Positions 6,087 to 32,967 of a stretch of DNA of 64,000 nt are shown in pieces. Where the stretch lies: contig OX597839.1 in assembly GCA_951406725.2 (NCBI GenBank), positions 5,084,001 to 5,148,000 of the forward strand, in the 5' to 3' direction. The notes beneath the pieces were generated by a model. The model was given only the letters and a program-made list of their open reading frames with translations. It made no database searches and had not been told where the DNA came from. The translations under genes were made by a program, and so were the position numbers. Within the stretch, counting starts at the first letter, position 1, and the number at the start of each line of letters is the position of its first letter. The stretch comes from Octopus vulgaris (lineage: Eukaryota).

Positions 6087-6566
6087 TAAATTAGAGATAA
6101 AACCACTATTAGGCAAATCAAACAATGAAAATCTTAAGCCAATACATAAAATTAATTAATTTATATTATTTTAAATATATATCAAAATTATTAAACGTTT
6201 AATAAAAGATAATGAGTAAAACACTACGATCATTTCATGGCTGTCCAATTCGTAATAATTCGAGTTATGGTTACTGAAGATTGACTGTAACCATAACTCG
6301 AATTATTACGAATTGGACCGCCATGAAACGATCGTAGTGTTTTACTCATTATCTTTTATTAAACTTTTAATAATTTTGATATATATTTAAAATAATATAA
6401 ATTAATTAATTTTATGTATTGGCTTAAGATTTTCATTGTTTGATTTGCCTAATAGTGGTTTTATCTCTAATTTAATATGATATAATATTTTACTATAAAA
6501 TTGGATTCAATCCTAAATCTGAATTTTCCCTGTAAGTTTGGATTTATTCCCTAATATTTTATTATA
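6083..6566. mobile_element. Fold-back element (192-bp arms, 12-nt loop, one-sided tail) with a degenerate HHR
   Basis: 6083-6274 is the reverse complement of 6287-6478; CTGAAGA at 6274-6280 and GAAACGATCGTA at 6325-6336; tail motif TTTGGATTT..TTCCCT recurs near 13845 and (reverse) near 25045; (TA)n on both sides. Confidence 0.75.
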
Positions 6567-7280: not shown

Positions 7281-7320
7281 CCGGCTTCCACATAGTTCCT
7301 TTCTGTATATATATATATAT

Positions 7321-7669
7321 TTCATCAAAAACAATTAAGATTAAAAATAATTCAAATGAATTCAAATGAATATGGTACTTAACTTAGATGCATCAAGATT
7401 CTCTATGGTATTAACCATAAAATTATCTGGGGTGATTATAACCATGGAAAAAGCAACAAGAATGGATCGGTAGATTAGTACCATTGTTTCATACTAAAAA
7501 CATTTAACTTAATATTACAGCAAATAAGAATATATAGAAAACCTATATGTGATTTAGCTGATGAATACTTGACATTATATTTGCTGTAATATTTGCAGCT
7601 TGAAATTAAATGTTTTTAGTATGAAACAATTGTACTAATCTACCGATCCATTCTTTTGCTTTTTTCTTA

Positions 7670-7673
<4 letters not shown>
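7321..7673. mobile_element. Fold-back HHR element, family H1
   Basis: About 7449-7527 is inverted to about 7578-7665; the tail 7350-7445 is the reverse complement of tails at 21135-21222 and 32672-32762; (TA)n-flanked. Confidence 0.75.
7551..7640 (+). ncRNA. Type I hammerhead ribozyme, canonical core, short palindromic stem III
   Basis: TTAG-CTGATGA-ATACT-(48 nt)-AGTAT-GAAAC-AATT-GTA-CTAA; stem I TTAG/CTAA, stem II ATACT/AGTAT; predicted cleavage after 7634. Confidence 0.75.
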
Positions 7674-7717
<44 letters not shown>

Positions 7718-7729
7718 CATTCTTTTAAA

Positions 7730-7860
7730 TGTTTACTTGTTTCAGTCATTTGACTGCAGCCATGCTGGAGCACTGCCTTAAATGGATTTAGTCAAAGAAA
7801 TCTACCGCAGGAATTTATTCTTTGTAAGCCTACTACTTATTCTATGGGTCTCTTTTGCCG
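7730..7860 (-). mobile_element. SINE family C, 3' end
   Basis: TACTTGTTTCAGTCATTTGACTGC.GCCATGCTGGAGCAC is the reverse complement of about 58638-58678. Confidence 0.75.
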
Positions 7861-7981
7861 AGATCAAATATAGGAAAAATTATGATAAATGCAATGTACT
7901 GCTTTTATTAGTTCTTTCTCTACGTACGTGTCGATATTGTAATAATTTCTAACTTTTGCTGTAGATGTTTGTTTGTTTGTT

Positions 7982-8283
7982 GAGCGAAGCGGTCTTCGTG
8001 GGAGAAGTCCAAAACGTGGTCCTTTGCTATTCGTAAGACCAGCAGAAGAGAAAGCAGGTCAACCCCCCGACACCGAGAGCATCGACGGATGGATGAATGT
8101 GCATCCAGGCTCAGCGATTGTGTAGGAAGTCGGGGGACAAGAAACAGGAAGAAAGAGTGAGAGAAAGTTGGAGCGAAAGAGTACAACAGGGGTCGCCACC
8201 ACCCCCTGTTGGAGTCACGTGGAGCTTTAGGTGTTTTGGCTCAAGAAACACACACAACGCCCTGGTCTGGGAATCGAAACCGC
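7982..8283 (-). mobile_element. SINE family A2 (family A head, alternative 3' half), 5'-truncated
   Basis: Collinear with 60246-60525. Confidence 0.8.
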
Positions 8284-8343
8284 CTTTCTCTATCTATCTG
8301 TCTGTCTGTCTCTTTCTCCCTCTCTTTCTCTTACCCCCTCTTG

Positions 8344-8406
<63 letters not shown>

Positions 8407-8547
8407 AAGTGAGAGAGCGGGGAGAAATAGAGAGAAACACCTATCCATCTTTCTATCTGTGTTACAAACACACACACATATACATATCTGTCACCTCTCT
8501 CTCTCTCTCTCTACGTGTATGCATGCGTGTATGTGCATGTATGTGTA

Positions 8548-8597
<50 letters not shown>

Positions 8598-9202
8598 TGA
8601 CTGCCTACCTATTTGTCTGTCAGCTTATCTTTCTGTCTGCTTATCTATCTGCAGCATTTTAATGCTTTCTTTTCTTCCTGATCTATATCATTCCCCTTAT
8701 TTGATATTCCCACATCCCTCCTCCCTCACTGCTTCTCTCTTAACTGCTTTATTTTCCTTTTCTTTTGCATACTTCGTTGTTACATCACTTCTCCTCCCAC
8801 CACTTCCTATACTTTATTACCACTATTTTTTCCCTTATCTTCTTCCAACCTTCTCTTTCCAAATCGTTCCTCATTTTATCACGCCTTTCTTACCCGAACT
8901 TTTTCTTTCGCTTTCTCATCTTCCCTATTTTTAATTTTTTTCCTTTTTCTACACTTTATTCTCTTCGCTATTTCTTTCATTTCCCCATCCGTAATCCTTC
9001 GTTCTTTCATCACGTAGTATATGCACATCACTCCAGTCTCTCTCGATCTCTTCGTATCTGTCTGTTTGTCTGTCTCTCTTTGCCCTTCTTCCACGCTCTT
9101 TCTTCGTGGTGCTCCCTTTCTGGTTATCATTTACATCTCTCTCTCTCACTTTCTTACAACTTCGCCTCCTTACTTTTCTTATTTACTCTTCATTTGTCCT
9201 TT

Positions 9203-9246
<44 letters not shown>

Positions 9247-9391
9247 TATTTACATTTTCATCTTATTTTTCTTTTACTTCTCTTCTTTCTTGATTTATTC
9301 TGATTTCACTAAAACTTTTTTGATATACGTTCCTTTGTTTCCGGATCCAACATTTATTTTTTTTCCATCTTATCCTCATTTCTGCGAGAAT

Positions 9392-9422
<31 letters not shown>

Positions 9423-9586
9423 CATTATTATTATTATTATTATTATTACCATCATCACTATTACCTCATCATCGTCAACATTCTCCTCATCATCATCCCC
9501 ATCATGATCGTCATCATCATCACCATCACCATCGTCATCATCATGATTATCATCATCAGCATCATATTCATTGCATCACCGTTATC

Positions 9587-9618
<32 letters not shown>

Positions 9619-10160
9619 TATCATCATCATTATTATTATCATCATCATTCTTCTTCTTCTTATTATTATTATTATTATCATCATTATTATTATTATTATT
9701 ATTATCATCATTATTATTATTATTATTATCATCATTATTATTATTATTATCACTATTACCTCATCATTAATATCCTCACCTCCTCCTCATCATCTTCGTC
9801 AACGTCATCATCATCTTCATCATCATCATCATTATCGTCATCTTCTTCTTCGTCGTCGTCGTCGTCGTCGTCATCATCATCACCATCACTGTTATCATCA
9901 TCATCATTATCATCATCATTCTTCCTCTTCTTCTTATTATTATTATTATCATCATTATTATTATTATTATCACTATTACCTCATTATCAATATCCTCTCC
10001 TCCTCCTCCTCATCATCTTCGTCAACGTCATCATCATCTTCATCATCATCATCATCATCATCATCATTATCGTCATCTTCTTCTTCGTCGTCGTCGTCCT
10101 CATCGTCATCATCATCACCATCACCGTTATCATCATCATCATAATCATCATCATGATTAT
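9392..10160. repeat. Compound (ATT)n/(ATC)n/(GTC)n microsatellite with higher-order duplication
   Basis: CACTATTACCTCAT recurs at about 9457, 9751 and 9971, and CATCTTCGTCAACGTCATC occurs twice. Confidence 0.9.
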
Positions 10161-10599
10161 TAAGTTCCTCCACTCCCCCACCCCCCATCGGTTTCATTTT
10201 CTTTTTTTTGTGTCTTTTCATCCTCATTTGCTCATGATGTCATCATAGATGCCTGTGTTGACTTTGAAGTGATCGCATATGTTTGCTGTTGTTTTTGTTG
10301 CTGTTTTTGTTGTTGTTCTGTTACTGCTATCCTTGTTGTTGTTGTTTTTGTTGTTGTTGTTGCTAACGATCATGATGTTTATGTTGCAACCGTCTTTGTT
10401 GTTGATGGTGTTGTTGTTGTTGTTGTCGGCTGTGGTGTATTTGTTGTTGCTCTTCTTATTTACCGTTGTTTTAATTTGTTTATATATTTTATATTAGTTT
10501 GTCTGGTCTTTTTTTTTTTTGAAATGTAACGCTGTCACATCCACAACTCCACCATTATGAAAACAATATGAACAGCAATACCATCATGATCAAACATAA

Positions 10600-11195
10600 C
10601 ACCGCCATCTCTGCTTCTACCATCACCACCATAAGCACCAGTACAACAACCACCACCACCACCACCAGCGACAGCAACAAGACGACGACAACTACCACCA
10701 ATACCACCACAACTACTACAACCACCACCACCACCACCAGCGACATCAACAGGACGACGACAACTACCACCAATACCACCACCACCACTACAACCAGCAC
10801 CGCTAACACCATAACACTATCACTTCTACCACCACTACCACCACCATCACAACATACCAAGCATCACCACCACAAGCACCAGTACAACAACAACCACCAC
10901 CGCTAGCGACAGCAACAAGACGACGACAACTACCACCAATACCACCACCACCACTACAACCACCACTAACACCATCACACTATCACTTCTACCACCATCA
11001 CAACACACCAGCATCACTACCACTACAAAAACAAACACCACCACCAGCGACAGCAACAAGACGAAGACAGCTACCACCAATACCATCACCACTAACACCA
11101 TCACACTATCACTTCTACCATCACAACACACCAGCATCACCACCACCACCACCATCAGTACAACAACAACAACCATCACCATCACCAACAGCGAC
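10600..11195. repeat. (ACC/AAC)-rich minisatellite
   Basis: Unit GCGACAGCAACAAGACGACGACAACTACCACCAATACC is repeated about four times with variants. Confidence 0.85.
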
Positions 11196-12390
11196 ATTTC
11201 TCTTCTAGCGCAGACTTAAACTGCTCAAGCTTCTCGCAGTAGATCTCCTTTGTTATTGTTCGGTTTGGGTTTAAAAGTTGACAGTGGACTAAACGTTTCT
11301 TATCACACTAAACAGATGACAACACCTTTCGTGGGTGAAGACTTCTTTAGCCTGGGTTGCCGGTGATTCTCCTTTCCCTACCCACTGCGTTCAGCGCTTG
11401 ACATATTTATATAGAACCCATTTGTCGTCACCAGTCACTATTTGGTCCAAGAAAGGTTTATTGGTGAGGCGTGACAGCAAAGAAGAGCACATATTCGCTC
11501 TCTGTGCGCGATTAGAGACGGAAAGTTTGTGAGAAACCCATTGATCCATATTTTTGCTGAATTTTCTGATGTCATGCAGGTGTCAATGAATGGTTGAATG
11601 ACCAAATCCAAGCTTCTCTGCTAATTCCTCAATATTTACGACTGGATTTTGTTCCACCAGGGTTTGCAGGACGTTCTCGTTGAGCTCTTCCAGGTCGATG
11701 CTCGTCTTCTAGGCTGTAGTTTCCGGCTCGGAATTTCTGGAATCACCGTTGGCACTTTGCGTTCCCAAAGTCCATCCGCTCCTCACCGTGGTGGGGACGC
11801 TGGCAATGGGTAGTGTCAGAGCTATGCCGTCGGGAACTTCGGTTCCTGGTTGGGCCACCCAAGGCGGATTGGTCTGACACCGAGTAGTATCAGGGCCACA
11901 ACCCGGCAGACAGGGCTCTGGTGAAAATCCTCGGACTGTCTGTTTCGGTAACCGGCGGCTCCTCGGTTGTTCTGTCCCTGCGTCTGCGGACAATCTGCGG
12001 CAAACGGGATGTCTCTACATGCGGGATTGTTGGGGACCGCTTGTGAAATCCACATATTCCCACAAAACTTCTTCCATGGTAGAAGAAGCCGACTCACCCC
12101 TCCCAGGGGGAATGTCGCCACAAGTACAAGTATAAGATGGCACTAGCTTACGCTTATTGTCCGATCCCCATATACTGCATTAATATACGTTGCACTTTAC
12201 GTTGCATTGTTGCCTTTATTGTACTCATAAAGCAAAATATGCCCGAATATGCCCCTTTGCCACTTCTATTATTGCTATGAAAAATCGAACTGCACTGTTA
12301 TAAAAAGTTGATGCTAGTAGTTTATCCCACCCCCTCCGACATTTAGTGCATGCAATTGAAAATACCCCATTATTTCTGGGATGACTCAAT
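11196..12390 (-). mobile_element. Mariner (Tc1/mariner) transposon remnant: 5' TIR plus decayed N-terminal and catalytic transposase
   Basis: Hand translation of the minus strand gives ILLYEYNKGNNAT..INAVYGDRTISVS (about 12145-12245), FQKFRAGNYSLEDEHRPGR, EELAEKLGFGHSTI, WVSHKL (WVPHEL-like) and FLDQIVTGDDKWVLY, with stops and frameshifts. Putative TIR TTGAGTCATCCCAGAAATAATG abuts TA at about 12390. Confidence 0.9.
11757..12137 (+). mobile_element. 381-bp GC-rich retroposed insert inside the mariner
   Basis: 7-bp TSD TGGCACT at 11750-11756 and 12138-12144; the mariner frame rejoins across it; 3' short-repeat tail CAAGTACAAGTATAAG. Confidence 0.75.
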
Positions 12391-12428
12391 ATATATACAC
12401 GATGGGATAATTTCAGTTTCTATCTACC

Positions 12429-12912
12429 AGGCTTAACTGTGTGAGAAGAAGCTTGCTTCCCAACTACTTGGCTCCGGGTTCAGTCCTACTGGTGGGACCT
12501 TGAGCAAGTGTATTTTACTCTAGTCTCCTGCCAACCAGATCCTTCAGTGGATTTGGTAGAGGGAAACTGAAAGAAGCCTGTAGTATATATTGAAAATTTT
12601 TGTATTAATGGAAAACCTCTATAATTGGCTCATGAGTACTCAACATATTAAATCTGTTGTAATACTTACAACATTTAATAAAATGATGTAGTACGAAACG
12701 ATCGTACCAAATTACCGGAATCATTCTTGTTGCTTATTTTGATATATATATATATATATAAATATGTATGTGTGTGTGGGGGTGGGGATTGGTGTGTCTT
12801 TGCATTTTTGTTTCTCCCCCACCACCGCTTGACACTCCAATGTAGGAGTGTTTGCAACATCGTAACTTAGCGGTTCGAGAGAAGAGACTAGTAGAATAAG
12901 TACGTGGGTTAA
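12429..12912 (+). mobile_element. SINE family C, split at its internal (TA)n by an H1 element
   Basis: 5' half at 12429-12590 and 3' half at about 12786-12912 (CGTAACTTAGCGGTTCG..AGAATAAGTAC). Confidence 0.75.
12625..12710 (+). ncRNA. Hammerhead ribozyme, family H1, with core mutation G5C (probably inactive)
   Basis: TTGG-CTCATGA-GTACT-(49 nt)-AGTAC-GAAAC-GATC-GTA-CCAA; all stems pair. Confidence 0.7.
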
Positions 12913-17759: not shown

Positions 17760-19283
17760 ATAGTGAGCGCAGGGGTCGATGATGTTATACAATATAGTGA
17801 TTGTTAATTTCAAATCTGTTGTTTATCTGTCTATGAGGATTGCCTCTTAATTCTTAAATTTTCTAAATTTTTGTCATTCACCTCAATTGTGACTGTTATG
17901 TTTTTGTCGATGTTCCAGCATCTGTCAAGATGTTTTCTGAAGGAGCAAGCTCGTGTGTTTAGATGTTCTTTGATGCGAATGTGTAAGGGGTCTTGTGCTA
18001 TCCACATAGAAATTCTTGCATTTGTTACATTGTATTCTATACTCAACATTTACCCGTTGGCATAAATCTGTGTCACGAATGGGGTAGTTACTTAGTGGGC
18101 ATTCATTGCTGTACCTTGCTCGATTCTTTGCTAGGTGTCATCTCAAAGAGGGGCCGGATTGCGCTAGTTGTATGTCTAGTCCTTCTCTTAGTGGCTCTTT
18201 GGATGGCGGTAGTTATCCTCTCGCTAAAATGGGGTATTTTAAGGAAGCATGTATTGCTGGGTCTTCTGTGTTTGGTGTGTTTGTCGTCTGTTACTTAAGC
18301 TGATTCACAATACCTCTGGGAAACGTGTGATGTGGGTCGCTTTGCCCACTGTCCTGCTGCACTTGCTCTTGATGCGTATAAGTTCATTTCTAGCGTATCC
18401 TATTTTGGCACCGAGTACAAGGGCTGAATTGTAGTGAACAAACATATCTCTACAGGCTGATTTCCTGTAGAACTCGGTGTGAATCTCTCCTTCTCCCATT
18501 ATTTTCAGTTGGAAGTCGAGCAGCGATAGGGATCCAGTGTTGTCGGGATGTTCTATAGTGAACTGTATGTTCATGTCCATGTTGTTGAATGTCGTGAATA
18601 TTATGTCAGCCTCTTCACGAGAGGATGTGACTTTGAGGATGTTATCTACGTACCTGGAGAAGAAGGCGCATGATTGGCGGATGTTGAGTGCTTGACGTTC
18701 CCGATGGTTCATATAGGTGATGGCCAATAGACTCGAGAGACGGGATCCAATGGGGACACCTGTTGTCTGCTTGTAGGTGTGATCATGGAAAGAGAGGTAG
18801 GTGTTGTCCACGATGATGGACAATAGTTGATGCATATCAGCTGCGGTGAGTTCGAAGCAGTGGATATCGGACGCTACCATGCCGTCAGTCAATAGGTTGA
18901 TCGCTGAGTGTGCTGGTACCGTTGTGTACTTTGAGACAACGTCAAGACTAAAGGTATAGCTGTTTTGCCTGGGTTGGTCTGGGGGCAGTTGGCGGATTCT
19001 TTTGATGACTTCGTGGGAGTTCTTGACGTGTCCAGGAAAGGTGGAGAGCACGGGTTTCAGATATTTTATATGGAGGCCTCTCAACACTTGAGACGATGAG
19101 TCTAATCTGGATCGTGTCGCTATCCTTGTGTGTCTTAATGAGGTGGCAGAATCTGGGTTATCTATTTTTCTTTGTGATGAAGTTGGTCTTGTATTTGTTA
19201 TGTAGTTGTCTCCGTCTACAAATGTCAGTCCAGCTGTAAATTCTGTCTTCAAGCCTGGTCGCGGTCGTATCTGTCACTTCAGA
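17760..19283 (-). mobile_element. Decayed Penelope-like retroelement (RT + GIY-YIG endonuclease)
   Basis: ORF 18305-19252 has SLDVVSKYTTVP, YKQTTGVPIGSRLS, RYVDNI (YVDD mutated), IQFTIE, LSLLDF and FYRK; downstream ORF 17831-18049 has LHIRIKEH, a GIY-YIG-type RxKEH motif; frames are broken. Confidence 0.9.
18305..19252 (-). pseudogene. Penelope-type reverse transcriptase fragment
   Basis: RT motifs as above; catalytic YVDD reads YVDN; premature stop at 18305. Confidence 0.85.
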
Positions 19284-20441: not shown

Positions 20442-20488
<47 letters not shown>

Positions 20489-20691
20489 TAAGCAACAAGT
20501 ATATCTTAGGTAATTTCGTACAATCGTTTCATTCTACTTCATTTTATTAATTACGGAGATGTACTCGCATAGCAAGTGATTTGATCTGAGATCGTGTGCT
20601 GGAACGAAAAGAATTGCAGCGTGGAAGGTGTTTGTAAGCCATTTAAGAAACACACAAAAGCCGTTCGATTCACTTCAACATTTAAGTTTAA

Positions 20692-20741
20692 TTTGTCAAA
20701 ATATTTTCGTCGCTATAATCCGCGACCTGTTCACTGACAAA
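20692..20741 (-). ncRNA. Hammerhead ribozyme variant (G3-C8 core), minus-strand copy
   Basis: Reverse complement: TTTGTCA-GTGAACA-G-GTCGC-GGATTATA-GCGAC-GAAA-ATAT-TT-TGACAAA. Confidence 0.65.
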
Positions 20742-20760
20742 AATCCATGCTGCACGGATT

Positions 20761-20810
20761 TTTGTCAGTGAACAGGTCGCAGATTTTAGCGACGAAAATA
20801 TTTTGACAAA
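20761..20810 (+). ncRNA. Hammerhead ribozyme variant (G3-C8 core), plus-strand copy
   Basis: TTTGTCA-GTGAACA-G-GTCGC-AGATTTTA-GCGAC-GAAA-ATAT-TT-TGACAAA; 7-bp stem I, 5-bp stem II; predicted cleavage after 20803. Confidence 0.65.
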
Positions 20811-21023
20811 TTAAACTTAAATGTTGAAGTGGATCGAACGGCTTTTGTGTGTTTCTTAAATGGCTTACAAACACCTTCCACGCTGCAATTGTTTTCATTT
20901 TATTAAACATTGTTAATATTACATCAGTTTTAAAATGTTGAGCAATCTTCAGCCATTTATACTGTTGGCAAACGAAATGGAAATAAGAATATGTATTGTC
21001 CGTTTGAAGGAAGACTTCTATAA

Positions 21024-21109
21024 ATGGCTGAAGATTGCTCAACATTTTAAAACTGATGTAATACTTACAATGTTTAATAAAATGAAGTAGCATGAAACGA
21101 TTGTAGCAA
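21024..21109 (+). ncRNA. Degenerate H1 hammerhead
   Basis: ATGG-CTGAAGA-TTGCT-(long loop)-AGCAT-GAAAC-GATT-GTA-GCAA; core intact, stems partly decayed. Confidence 0.55.
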
Positions 21110-21217
21110 ATTACCTAAGATATACTTGTTGCTTATTTTGATTATAATCACCCCATGGATTTATATGGATAATACCATACAAAATTCTGGTGCCTCTGAC
21201 TTAAGTACCATATTTAT

Positions 21218-21264
<47 letters not shown>

Positions 21265-32637: not shown

Positions 32638-32778
32638 ATAAAAATAAGCAACAAGGATATTCTTGTAGCTTATTTTCATTATAATCACCCCATTTTGAAT
32701 TATACGGATAACACCATACTAAATTCTGGTACCTTTAACTAAAGTACCATATTCAACTGAATCTACATTTTACTGAAC
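32638..32778 (+). mobile_element. Minimal H1 element (short hairpin plus tail, ribozyme lost)
   Basis: AAAATAAGCAACAAG/CTTGTAGCTTATTTT hairpin, then ATTATAATCACCCC..ACCATAC.AAATTCTGGT..AAGTACCATATT as at 21141-21214. Confidence 0.7.
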
Positions 32779-32967
32779 TTATATATAAACAAGGGTACAC
32801 AATATCACAAACATTGCTAGAAATAGGACTAAAAAACAACTCGAGTCCAATGGTGGTACTATTTTGTACTGTTTTTTATCCTTGTTTATTAATTTGCCTA
32901 TATATTTGCCTTGTATATATATATATATATATACAATATTAAATAATGTATATATATATATACACAT

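Follow-up and report, generated by a model that had tools for sequence, protein, structure and literature searches.

Long-arm hammerhead motifs in an octopus genome as probable ends of Hydra-clade Penelope-like retrotransposons

A 64,000-nt stretch of the Octopus vulgaris genome (assembly GCA_951406725.2, contig OX597839.1, positions 5,084,001 to 5,148,000 of the forward strand; hereafter the window, numbered from its first letter) contains two motifs resembling self-cleaving hammerhead ribozymes, each with a very long stem II. They raise the questions of which element left them there, what the long stem II represents and whether the motifs still function as ribozymes. An earlier note had placed them at 7551 and 12625. 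Both are present, although stem I of the first, here copy A, starts at 7554, so that 7551 lies 3 nt too early; the second is here copy B. Their origin was absent from that account. We consider it probable that both are type I hammerheads from the terminal repeat (pseudo-long terminal repeat, pseudo-LTR) of a Penelope-like element (PLE) of the Hydra clade, surviving as short remnants, truncated at the 5' side, within (TA)n. The long "loop II" is predicted to extend stem II as a folded structure, and the core is likely to remain free to form.

In copy A, stem I is formed by TTAG (7554-7557) and CTAA (7635-7638), and the core by CTGATGA (7558-7564) together with 7623-7634, in which GAA occupies 7623-7625. 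The 5-bp base of stem II, ATACT (7565-7569) and AGTAT (7618-7622), encloses 48 nt, the self-complementary octamer ACAATTGT occupies 7626-7633, and cleavage is predicted 3' of A7634. Copy B has TTGG (12625-12628) and CCAA (12707-12710) as stem I, GTACT and AGTAC around 49 nt as the stem II base, the octamer ACGATCGT, and A12706 at position N17. Its core reads CTCATGA (12629-12635) and deviates from the hammerhead core CUGANGA at G5, a G5C change missing from the earlier note. The canonical core that the note assigned to copy 7551 is indeed intact; its 10.1-11.1 pair, however, is A-U. The compensatory changes that it described between the copies can be read in the sequence as well. Over 167 nt the two copies share 74% identity, and they are distinguished by three changes that affect both strands: one pair in stem I, one in the palindrome and one at the base of stem II. 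The last of these is weak evidence, since pair 10.1-11.1 is variable. A descriptor scan of both window strands, with at least 4 bp in stems I and II, matched only copies A and B.

The probable parent element is indicated by frames located upstream of related hammerheads. At locus L015, a subfamily A hammerhead lies ~0.9 kb downstream of a GIY-YIG-like frame. A search with the endonuclease fragment of L015 gave 18,000 candidates, 150 of which were scored, and 70 distinct loci were fetched from that list. In 57 of them the same strand bears a long-arm hammerhead further downstream; motifs of the A type and of the B type are both represented. The distance from endonuclease to core across subfamilies is mostly 0.57-1.5 kb. 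The insertions in the window are close to such copies: the direct arm of the insertion that carries copy A is 92-93% identical to the endonuclease-linked copies L069 and L071, and the insertion that carries copy B is 96% identical to the endonuclease-linked copy L089. In three loci (L080, L082 and L091) a single frame that carries a reverse transcriptase plus, at its C terminus, a GIY-YIG endonuclease is located between hammerhead-bearing pseudo-LTRs, and the hammerhead-to-hammerhead length is 4,199-4,659 nt. L080 is complete, with two identical hammerheads in direct orientation, 4,650 nt apart, flanking an open frame of 984 aa, in which a Met at residue 28 yields a protein of 957 aa. It belongs with L081 and L084 (open frames of 947 and 668 aa) to a young subfamily with near-identical ends, two Asn-rich inserts in the protein and a 1.5-kb 3' untranslated region (UTR).

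The L080 protein (P0002) contains the motifs RWK, DKT and YRDD, a CxCX5C linker, and CxxC and CxH around conserved E and N residues; it has no CxxC within the GIY-YIG core and no CCHH. These motifs recur with variation, such as RWR, in 21 aligned homologues (of at least 120), and in the subfamily A fragment (P0001) a G replaces the first C of the CxCX5C linker. RWK, DKT, CxCX5C, CxxC and CxH characterize the Hydra clade as described by Craig et al. (2021, PMC8557442), which includes Hydra-1_Obim of Octopus bimaculoides and shares with the present element the C-terminal position of GIY-YIG. Further traits agree: insertion into (TA)n, a canonical type I hammerhead with a short stem III near the 3' end, 5' truncation, inverted 5'-truncated copies and an optional tail. 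The Naiad clade, considered because of "half-core" notes, was rejected, as the frame ends directly behind an endonuclease placed at its C terminus. Atlas neighbours of the element protein scored 0.94-0.98, RVT_1 occurring in 16-48% of the members for three of the seven listed, and a profile comparison with another PLE fragment gave an uninformative probability of 4%. Argonauta hians and Octopus sinensis are the sources of the nearest named proteins. A search of Pfam with 22 family members gave one match, weak and unrelated.

Several points weigh against this assignment. For the subfamily A fragment, GIY-YIG (E 0.0002) scored 22.1 bits, just below the cut-off of 22.6. The full protein P0002 had no match in Pfam at E 0.001, nor did its alignment profile match any solved structure in the comparison. 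The element is 4.2-4.7 kb long, with 957 aa including the Asn-rich inserts, whereas described Hydra-clade elements are generally smaller than 3 kb (Craig et al. 2021), a size that is a tendency and not diagnostic; the tail measures ~100-125 nt instead of the usual 30-40. The placement is based on motifs rather than on a tree with named reference elements, and the putative ribozyme activity is judged from sequence and predicted folds.

The greatest departure from the described clade concerns stem II. In all 26 Hydra rows of File S2 of Craig et al. (2021), loop 2 has 3-10 nt and the stem II domain at most 26 nt, compared with 56-60 nt here; the hammerhead of Hydra-1_Obim has a different sequence and an 8-nt loop. 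In other respects the motifs resemble the PLE hammerheads with palindromic helix III described by Cervera and De la Pena (2014, PMC4209133), which are type I motifs in pseudo-LTRs with a short helix I and a palindrome of 15.2-16.2 plus loop 3, form consensus families with compensatory changes, and occur mostly as single truncated copies, some as opposite-strand pairs 100-700 bp apart. Helix II of those motifs has 6-8 bp, as opposed to a 5-bp base with an extension of 46-50 nt here, and their G10.1-C11.1 pair, typical of canonical motifs, is conserved, whereas in the octopus it is variable and copy A has A10.1-U11.1.

Selection on pairing was assessed in 20 representatives, all from one genome, which were aligned by sequence alone. 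They comprise the medoids of 14 of the 16 clusters with at least two copies, one H-type copy and five singletons, taken from 207 distinct hammerheads in 43 clusters that remained of 252 rows after those with spacers outside 54-62 nt or damaged anchors had been dropped. RNAalifold recovered, unprompted, stem I, the stem II base and an apical hairpin of 7 bp. For 19 named pairs, 93.9% of the 380 cells were paired, a value attained in none of 500 shuffles, and slid partners gave 25-51%; nine of these pairs change on both sides, a number reached by 10 of 500 shuffles. With a tree built from the unpaired columns and the flanks, the pairing of 15 pairs amounted to 0.943 compared with 0.689 ± 0.045 in simulations (none of 1000 as high), and eight doubly changed pairs were observed against 4.8 ± 1.7, which 58 of 1000 runs matched and which is marginal on its own. 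A tree null that keeps the rate of each column (1500 runs) reached the observed pairing in no run for stem I, in three for the stem II base, in none for the palindrome and in 55 for the apical hairpin. The middle of the extension was not scored because the alignment register is unreliable there. The core is invariant at twelve positions in all 20 representatives, and U4 and G5 are retained in 19, while the flanks diverge. Selection on the hammerhead stems, which had been proposed for the source lineages, is well supported by these comparisons, and so is retention of the palindrome, in which one pair changes on both sides between A and B; selection on the apical hairpin is moderately supported.

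Pair 10.1-11.1 has to be treated separately. It is A-U in four representatives, G-C in four, G-U in six and U-U in six, so that it provides weak evidence of pairing and is not to be counted as covariation. Its state follows the subfamily, being A-U in copy A and in 38 of 39 sampled subfamily A copies, G-C in 46 of 48 subfamily B copies, and U-U in subfamilies F, G and I. A search with copy A gave 786 candidates and one with copy B 1,288; 40 of each were scored, and the full-length relatives among those scored are 92-97% identical. Copy A is the medoid of its 39 sampled relatives, and G5C was found in only one of 48 subfamily B copies, that of the window itself; the core is intact in 35 of the 39 A copies and 40 of the 48 B copies. 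Because both copies sit in subfamilies in this way, the changes between A and B arose in active parents and not at these two places. Inverted pairs, a listed PLE arrangement (Craig et al. 2021), were found at 11 of 27 A places and 9 of 29 B places. An older subfamily, H (L175-L186), has 88-94% identity in a sample biased to the query, a core that is mostly CCGAGGA (U4C) and a GGCC loop III.

It had been stated that loop II, at 48-49 nt, is unusually long. The length is correct, but most of this stretch is predicted to be paired, hence a long folded extension of stem II rather than a loop. The stem II domain has 56-60 nt in all 14 multi-copy clusters that were folded, and an interrupted hairpin is predicted. 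The arm is not peculiar to this lineage. Genome-wide counts, which cover 2.8 Gb in 227 contigs, gave 8,230 exact core patterns with spacers of 8-30 nt, 7,993 with 31-52 nt, 19,946 with 53-67 nt and 7,365 with 68-97 nt, compared with 505, 347, 285 and 485 reversed-pattern controls in the same classes. The total is 43,534, some sites being counted twice, against ~1,600 controls, and 81% have an arm longer than 30 nt. One family (L190, L215, L218-L219) has a second CUGANGA word in the 3' part of its long arm, owing to which some sites fall into two spacer classes. In 52 loci from pattern matches, inspected for loop III, stem I, TA run and arm fold, loop III was self-complementary in 42 (background 26%), stem I had at least 3 bp in 37 and a TA run followed within 250 nt in 39; the arm fold had z < -2 in only 20. 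Of 20 hand-picked regions, four had Hydra-type frames upstream of sequence-unrelated hammerheads with arms of 20, 39, 51 and 73 nt, and 16 had no such frame. Within a lineage the arm thus keeps its length, but from one lineage to another the length varies freely. The long loops of 35 and 29 nt in the PLE-X1 hammerheads of spike moss (File S2 of Craig et al. 2021), marked there as deviating from the canonical structure, are comparable, but they belong to unrelated, endonuclease-less plant elements, the inserts are shorter and each represents a single family.

Among ten endonuclease-linked subfamilies, mean identity was 75% in the extension, 78% in the leader and 58-64% in three upstream UTR windows, with 50-54% after shuffling. 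The extension is more conserved than expected of a neutral insert, which counts against the idea of a merely tolerated arm and favours a different reading of the same element, one that we consider rather unlikely. It regards the stem II extension as a working module, either a handle for the element's own reverse transcriptase and endonuclease or an off-switch that operates until protein binds, so that the uncut RNA serves as template first. The domain length, fixed at 56-60 nt while the distance from endonuclease to core varies, agrees with such a role, as do the unprompted recovery of the apical hairpin, with pairing matched by only 55 of 1500 null runs, and the finding that the hammerhead of the sole PLE tested with its own protein cut only when the protein was added (Frangieh et al. 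2024, PMC11167929). The higher identity is, however, open to another cause, since the fixed UTR windows can be shifted by indels, which depresses the UTR values. Only one of seven apical pairs changes on both sides, and this pair is broken in 5 of 20 rows. Arms from 8 to 97 nt all exist in thousands of copies, a Hydra-type element in the same genome has an arm of 20 nt (L247), one lineage bears arms of 39, 44 and ~68 nt on a similar base, and the arms of unrelated families have no evident sequence in common. Because the apical loop is palindromic in some subfamilies only, a function in kissing-loop contacts was discarded. Being under some constraint in this lineage but free in length between lineages, the extension most likely represents an insert that folds well and is tolerated, and not an addition to the catalytic machinery. 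A more far-reaching proposal, which we offer tentatively and rate as doubtful, is that Hydra-clade elements of octopus have repeatedly turned stem II into a structured, protein-binding switch of 40-90 nt that would keep the RNA uncut for target-primed reverse transcription and permit cleavage only after the element protein has bound.

Predicted folding does not favour the active form, which adds to the points against the preferred reading. In the models, which ignore tertiary contacts, adopting the active form costs a monomer 4.5 (A) and 3.3 (B) kcal/mol relative to the predicted minimum and a dimer (double hammerhead) 5.9 (A) and 5.8 (B) kcal/mol, and the stem I pair probability in A is below 0.1. 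In both copies the predicted minimum contains a competing hairpin across the cleavage site; it was not adopted as a conserved switch, not being evident by eye in subfamily F. No tertiary contact between loops 1 and 2 was identified by eye. Related hammerheads cut weakly and better as dimers (Cervera and De la Pena 2014; Cervera and de la Pena 2020, PMC7229834). In plus-strand read-through RNA at 7551 the inverted arm comes first and is predicted to form a hairpin of -107 kcal/mol over the 3' half of the ribozyme; because of this pairing, cleavage of copy 7551 in place appears unlikely. Cleavage of the excised motif seems plausible because it is the family medoid. Copy 12625 is likely to be catalytically dead in place by G5C, a change that serves as an inactivating control elsewhere (PMC6908138). 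Assembled contigs of four runs, which are only presumed to represent RNA, cover 22, 30, 6 and 18 of the 30 bins of L080; they have no end at the cleavage site, assembled contigs not showing RNA ends.

These predictions lend some weight to a further alternative, namely that the motif is no longer a ribozyme in these lineages and that its stems persist only as RNA structure near the start of reverse transcription. The predicted competing hairpin, the weak stem II base (A-U, G-U or U-U) in 16 of the 20 representatives, U4C in most sampled subfamily H copies, and the independence of insertion in vitro from hammerhead cleavage (Frangieh et al. 2024) are all consistent with it. We nevertheless judge it improbable, given a core with twelve positions unchanged in every representative and U4 and G5 in 19 despite diverging flanks, a palindrome whose covariation no null run reproduced, and the cleavage, enhanced in the dimer, of an axolotl hammerhead whose stem III has 2 bp and whose stem II base is U-U (Cervera and de la Pena 2020).

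That the short insertions form a non-autonomous family of their own, retrozymes or fold-back miniature inverted-repeat transposable elements, is very improbable and largely refuted: most copies near the 7551 and 12625 types do measure 150-350 bp, are frameless and often occur as inverted repeats, and animal retrozymes have been proposed to derive from PLE ends (bioRxiv 10.64898/2026.07.22.740005), but none of the 60 top loci showed short units arrayed head to tail, the 5' ends and inversion points vary between copies, and the same ends run on into the 3' UTR and the endonuclease at 92-96% identity. Cervera and de la Pena (2020) described non-LTR retrozymes from coral, mussel and axolotl, which share with the octopus motifs the type I topology, a 2-bp stem III with a tetraloop and, in the axolotl, a very high copy number (126,247 motifs, above the octopus total of ~43,500). 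Their cleavage is enhanced in dimers, as it may be in the octopus motifs; they are non-coding tandem repeats of ~170-400 nt, whereas the octopus copies are dispersed or inverted ends of a coding element.

The preferred reading, truncated ends of a coding PLE, also accommodates the way in which the copies end. The distance from the cleavage site to (TA)n is +30-49 in 20 of 39 A copies and +140-169 in 18, and in B copies +30-39 in 24 of 48 and +130-139 in 19. The stretch between these two 3' ends is the 5' leader of full-length elements, and both ends adjoin TATA-like words within it, a position suggesting that base-pairing to the nicked target may provide the primer. In PAc (Poseidon) of Anolis carolinensis, the "tail" was traced to two internal starts of reverse transcription (Frangieh et al. 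2024), and by analogy the two 3' ends here may arise in the same manner. Both systems have two fixed 3' ends past the hammerhead, AT-rich targets and templates intact across the cleavage site. PAc, however, belongs to another clade and starts in the open reading frame at sites not homologous to the target, as opposed to the leader positions found here, and the account of PAc drawn on here mentions no long arm.

From studied relatives a cycle of the parent element can be sketched. The ribozyme would cut a more-than-unit-length transcript with low efficiency, either as a double hammerhead formed through the 8-nt palindrome or with the help of the element protein. Reverse transcription would be primed from nicked (TA)n DNA and have two internal starts on the RNA, located ~30-49 and 130-169 nt beyond the point of cleavage. 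Full copies are unbroken through the cleavage site; the template is therefore uncut or re-joined RNA.

Within the window (Table 1), insertion A is an inverted pair (7322-7673). The extension in its inverted arm carries a deletion and loop III there is AATG; the long tail that follows is the 5' leader of the element, as identified from L080, L082 and L091. Further relatives are present. The third copy listed lies in an inverted pair of subfamily F (20482-21222; 2,847 candidates) with other sequence between the arms, and between TA runs at 32659-32784 this lineage has also left a fragment that consists of the tail (5' leader) only and has 83% identity with the tail of subfamily B. A fold-back insertion of a sequence-unrelated family (6130-6480) has a hammerhead core at 6274 (+) with a 44-nt arm and a GATC loop III, the 5' strand of its stem I apparently having been replaced at the inversion junction.

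Table 1. Positions, within the window, of the hammerhead motifs, their parts and the insertions that carry them
Feature	Positions	Strand	Basis
Copy A, type I hammerhead, subfamily A	7554-7638	+	descriptor scan and sampled copies
Copy A, 58-nt stem II domain, predicted to have a 5-bp base, middle helices with interruptions and, at the apex, a hairpin of 7 bp with a 3-nt loop	7565-7622	+	
Self-complementary octamer of copy A (stem III and loop III); 8-bp duplex predicted in the double hammerhead	7626-7633	+	
Copy B, type I hammerhead, subfamily B, private G5C at 12631	12625-12710	+	
Stem II domain of copy B, 59 nt, interrupted hairpin (predicted)	12636-12694	+	
Third copy, from subfamily F of this lineage: stem II domain of 59 nt with U-U at its base; first pair of stem I disrupted	21024-21109	+	
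(TA)n run, left end of insertion A, target microsatellite	7308-7321	.	
Insertion A, inverted arm: 5'-truncated element end, long-ended, only the 3' half of the hammerhead	7322-7526	-	
Insertion A, direct arm: 5'-truncated element end (pseudo-LTR piece), short-ended	7525-7673	+	
(TA)n run, right end of insertion A	7674-7717	.	
Insertion B: single 5'-truncated stump, short-ended, then (TA)n	12590-12748	+	

Elsewhere the window (1-64000) consists mostly of microsatellites and repeats. The Pfam search covered 68 of its 71 open frames (at least 85 aa and past the low-complexity filter), and none of these matched a host gene. A 322-aa open frame at 18308-19273 (-) matches RVT_1 (E 1e-7), is not matched by the L080-type protein and is probably a fragment of another retrotransposon. 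The stretch 11197-11668 has an 84% match to a transposase-like fragment in L061, presumably Tc1/mariner to judge from its motifs. On contig C9, five subfamily B copies are spaced by ~6.6 kb (L061-L064; G000:C9:97937108-97963751); the array was rejected as a tandem full-length element and is a local duplication that includes the transposase fragment and repeats resembling short interspersed elements.

That default descriptors could miss such long loops was a plausible suggestion, and Rfam at E 10 gave no hammerhead match for copy A or copy B. The same search also missed a control with a 19-nt arm from the same genome (L220), so that length is not established as the cause of the miss. For the whole window, Rfam gave only microsatellite-driven microRNA matches among the 150 of 679 listed. 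A more direct consequence arises from the counts given above: with about four in five core matches bearing an arm longer than 30 nt, searches limited to short loops would undercount these motifs.

Already published are the occurrence of hammerheads at the ends of PLEs, a palindrome in loop III, compensatory changes from one family to the next, pairs of inverted copies and the Hydra clade in octopus. No description of long-arm hammerheads in cephalopods was found in the literature covered, most subscription journals lying outside it. A 2017 account of dimeric PLE hammerheads by Lunse et al. reportedly exists and may list such long-arm variants. The main text of a 2026 repeat annotation of Octopus vulgaris contains neither "ribozyme" nor "hammerhead" (PMC13282606). 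What is added at present is a variant in size; both the motif and the clade have been described, the clade also from octopus, and any function of the arm is putative.

Its interest lies in what the genome offers. What hammerheads do in Penelope-like elements has been described as unclear (Craig et al. 2021), and this genome holds a natural series of one ribozyme with arms of 8-97 nt together with a young, intact element for testing. If stem II does act as a switch, the ~35,000 long-arm motifs and the young intact element L080 would make the role of the PLE hammerhead directly testable.

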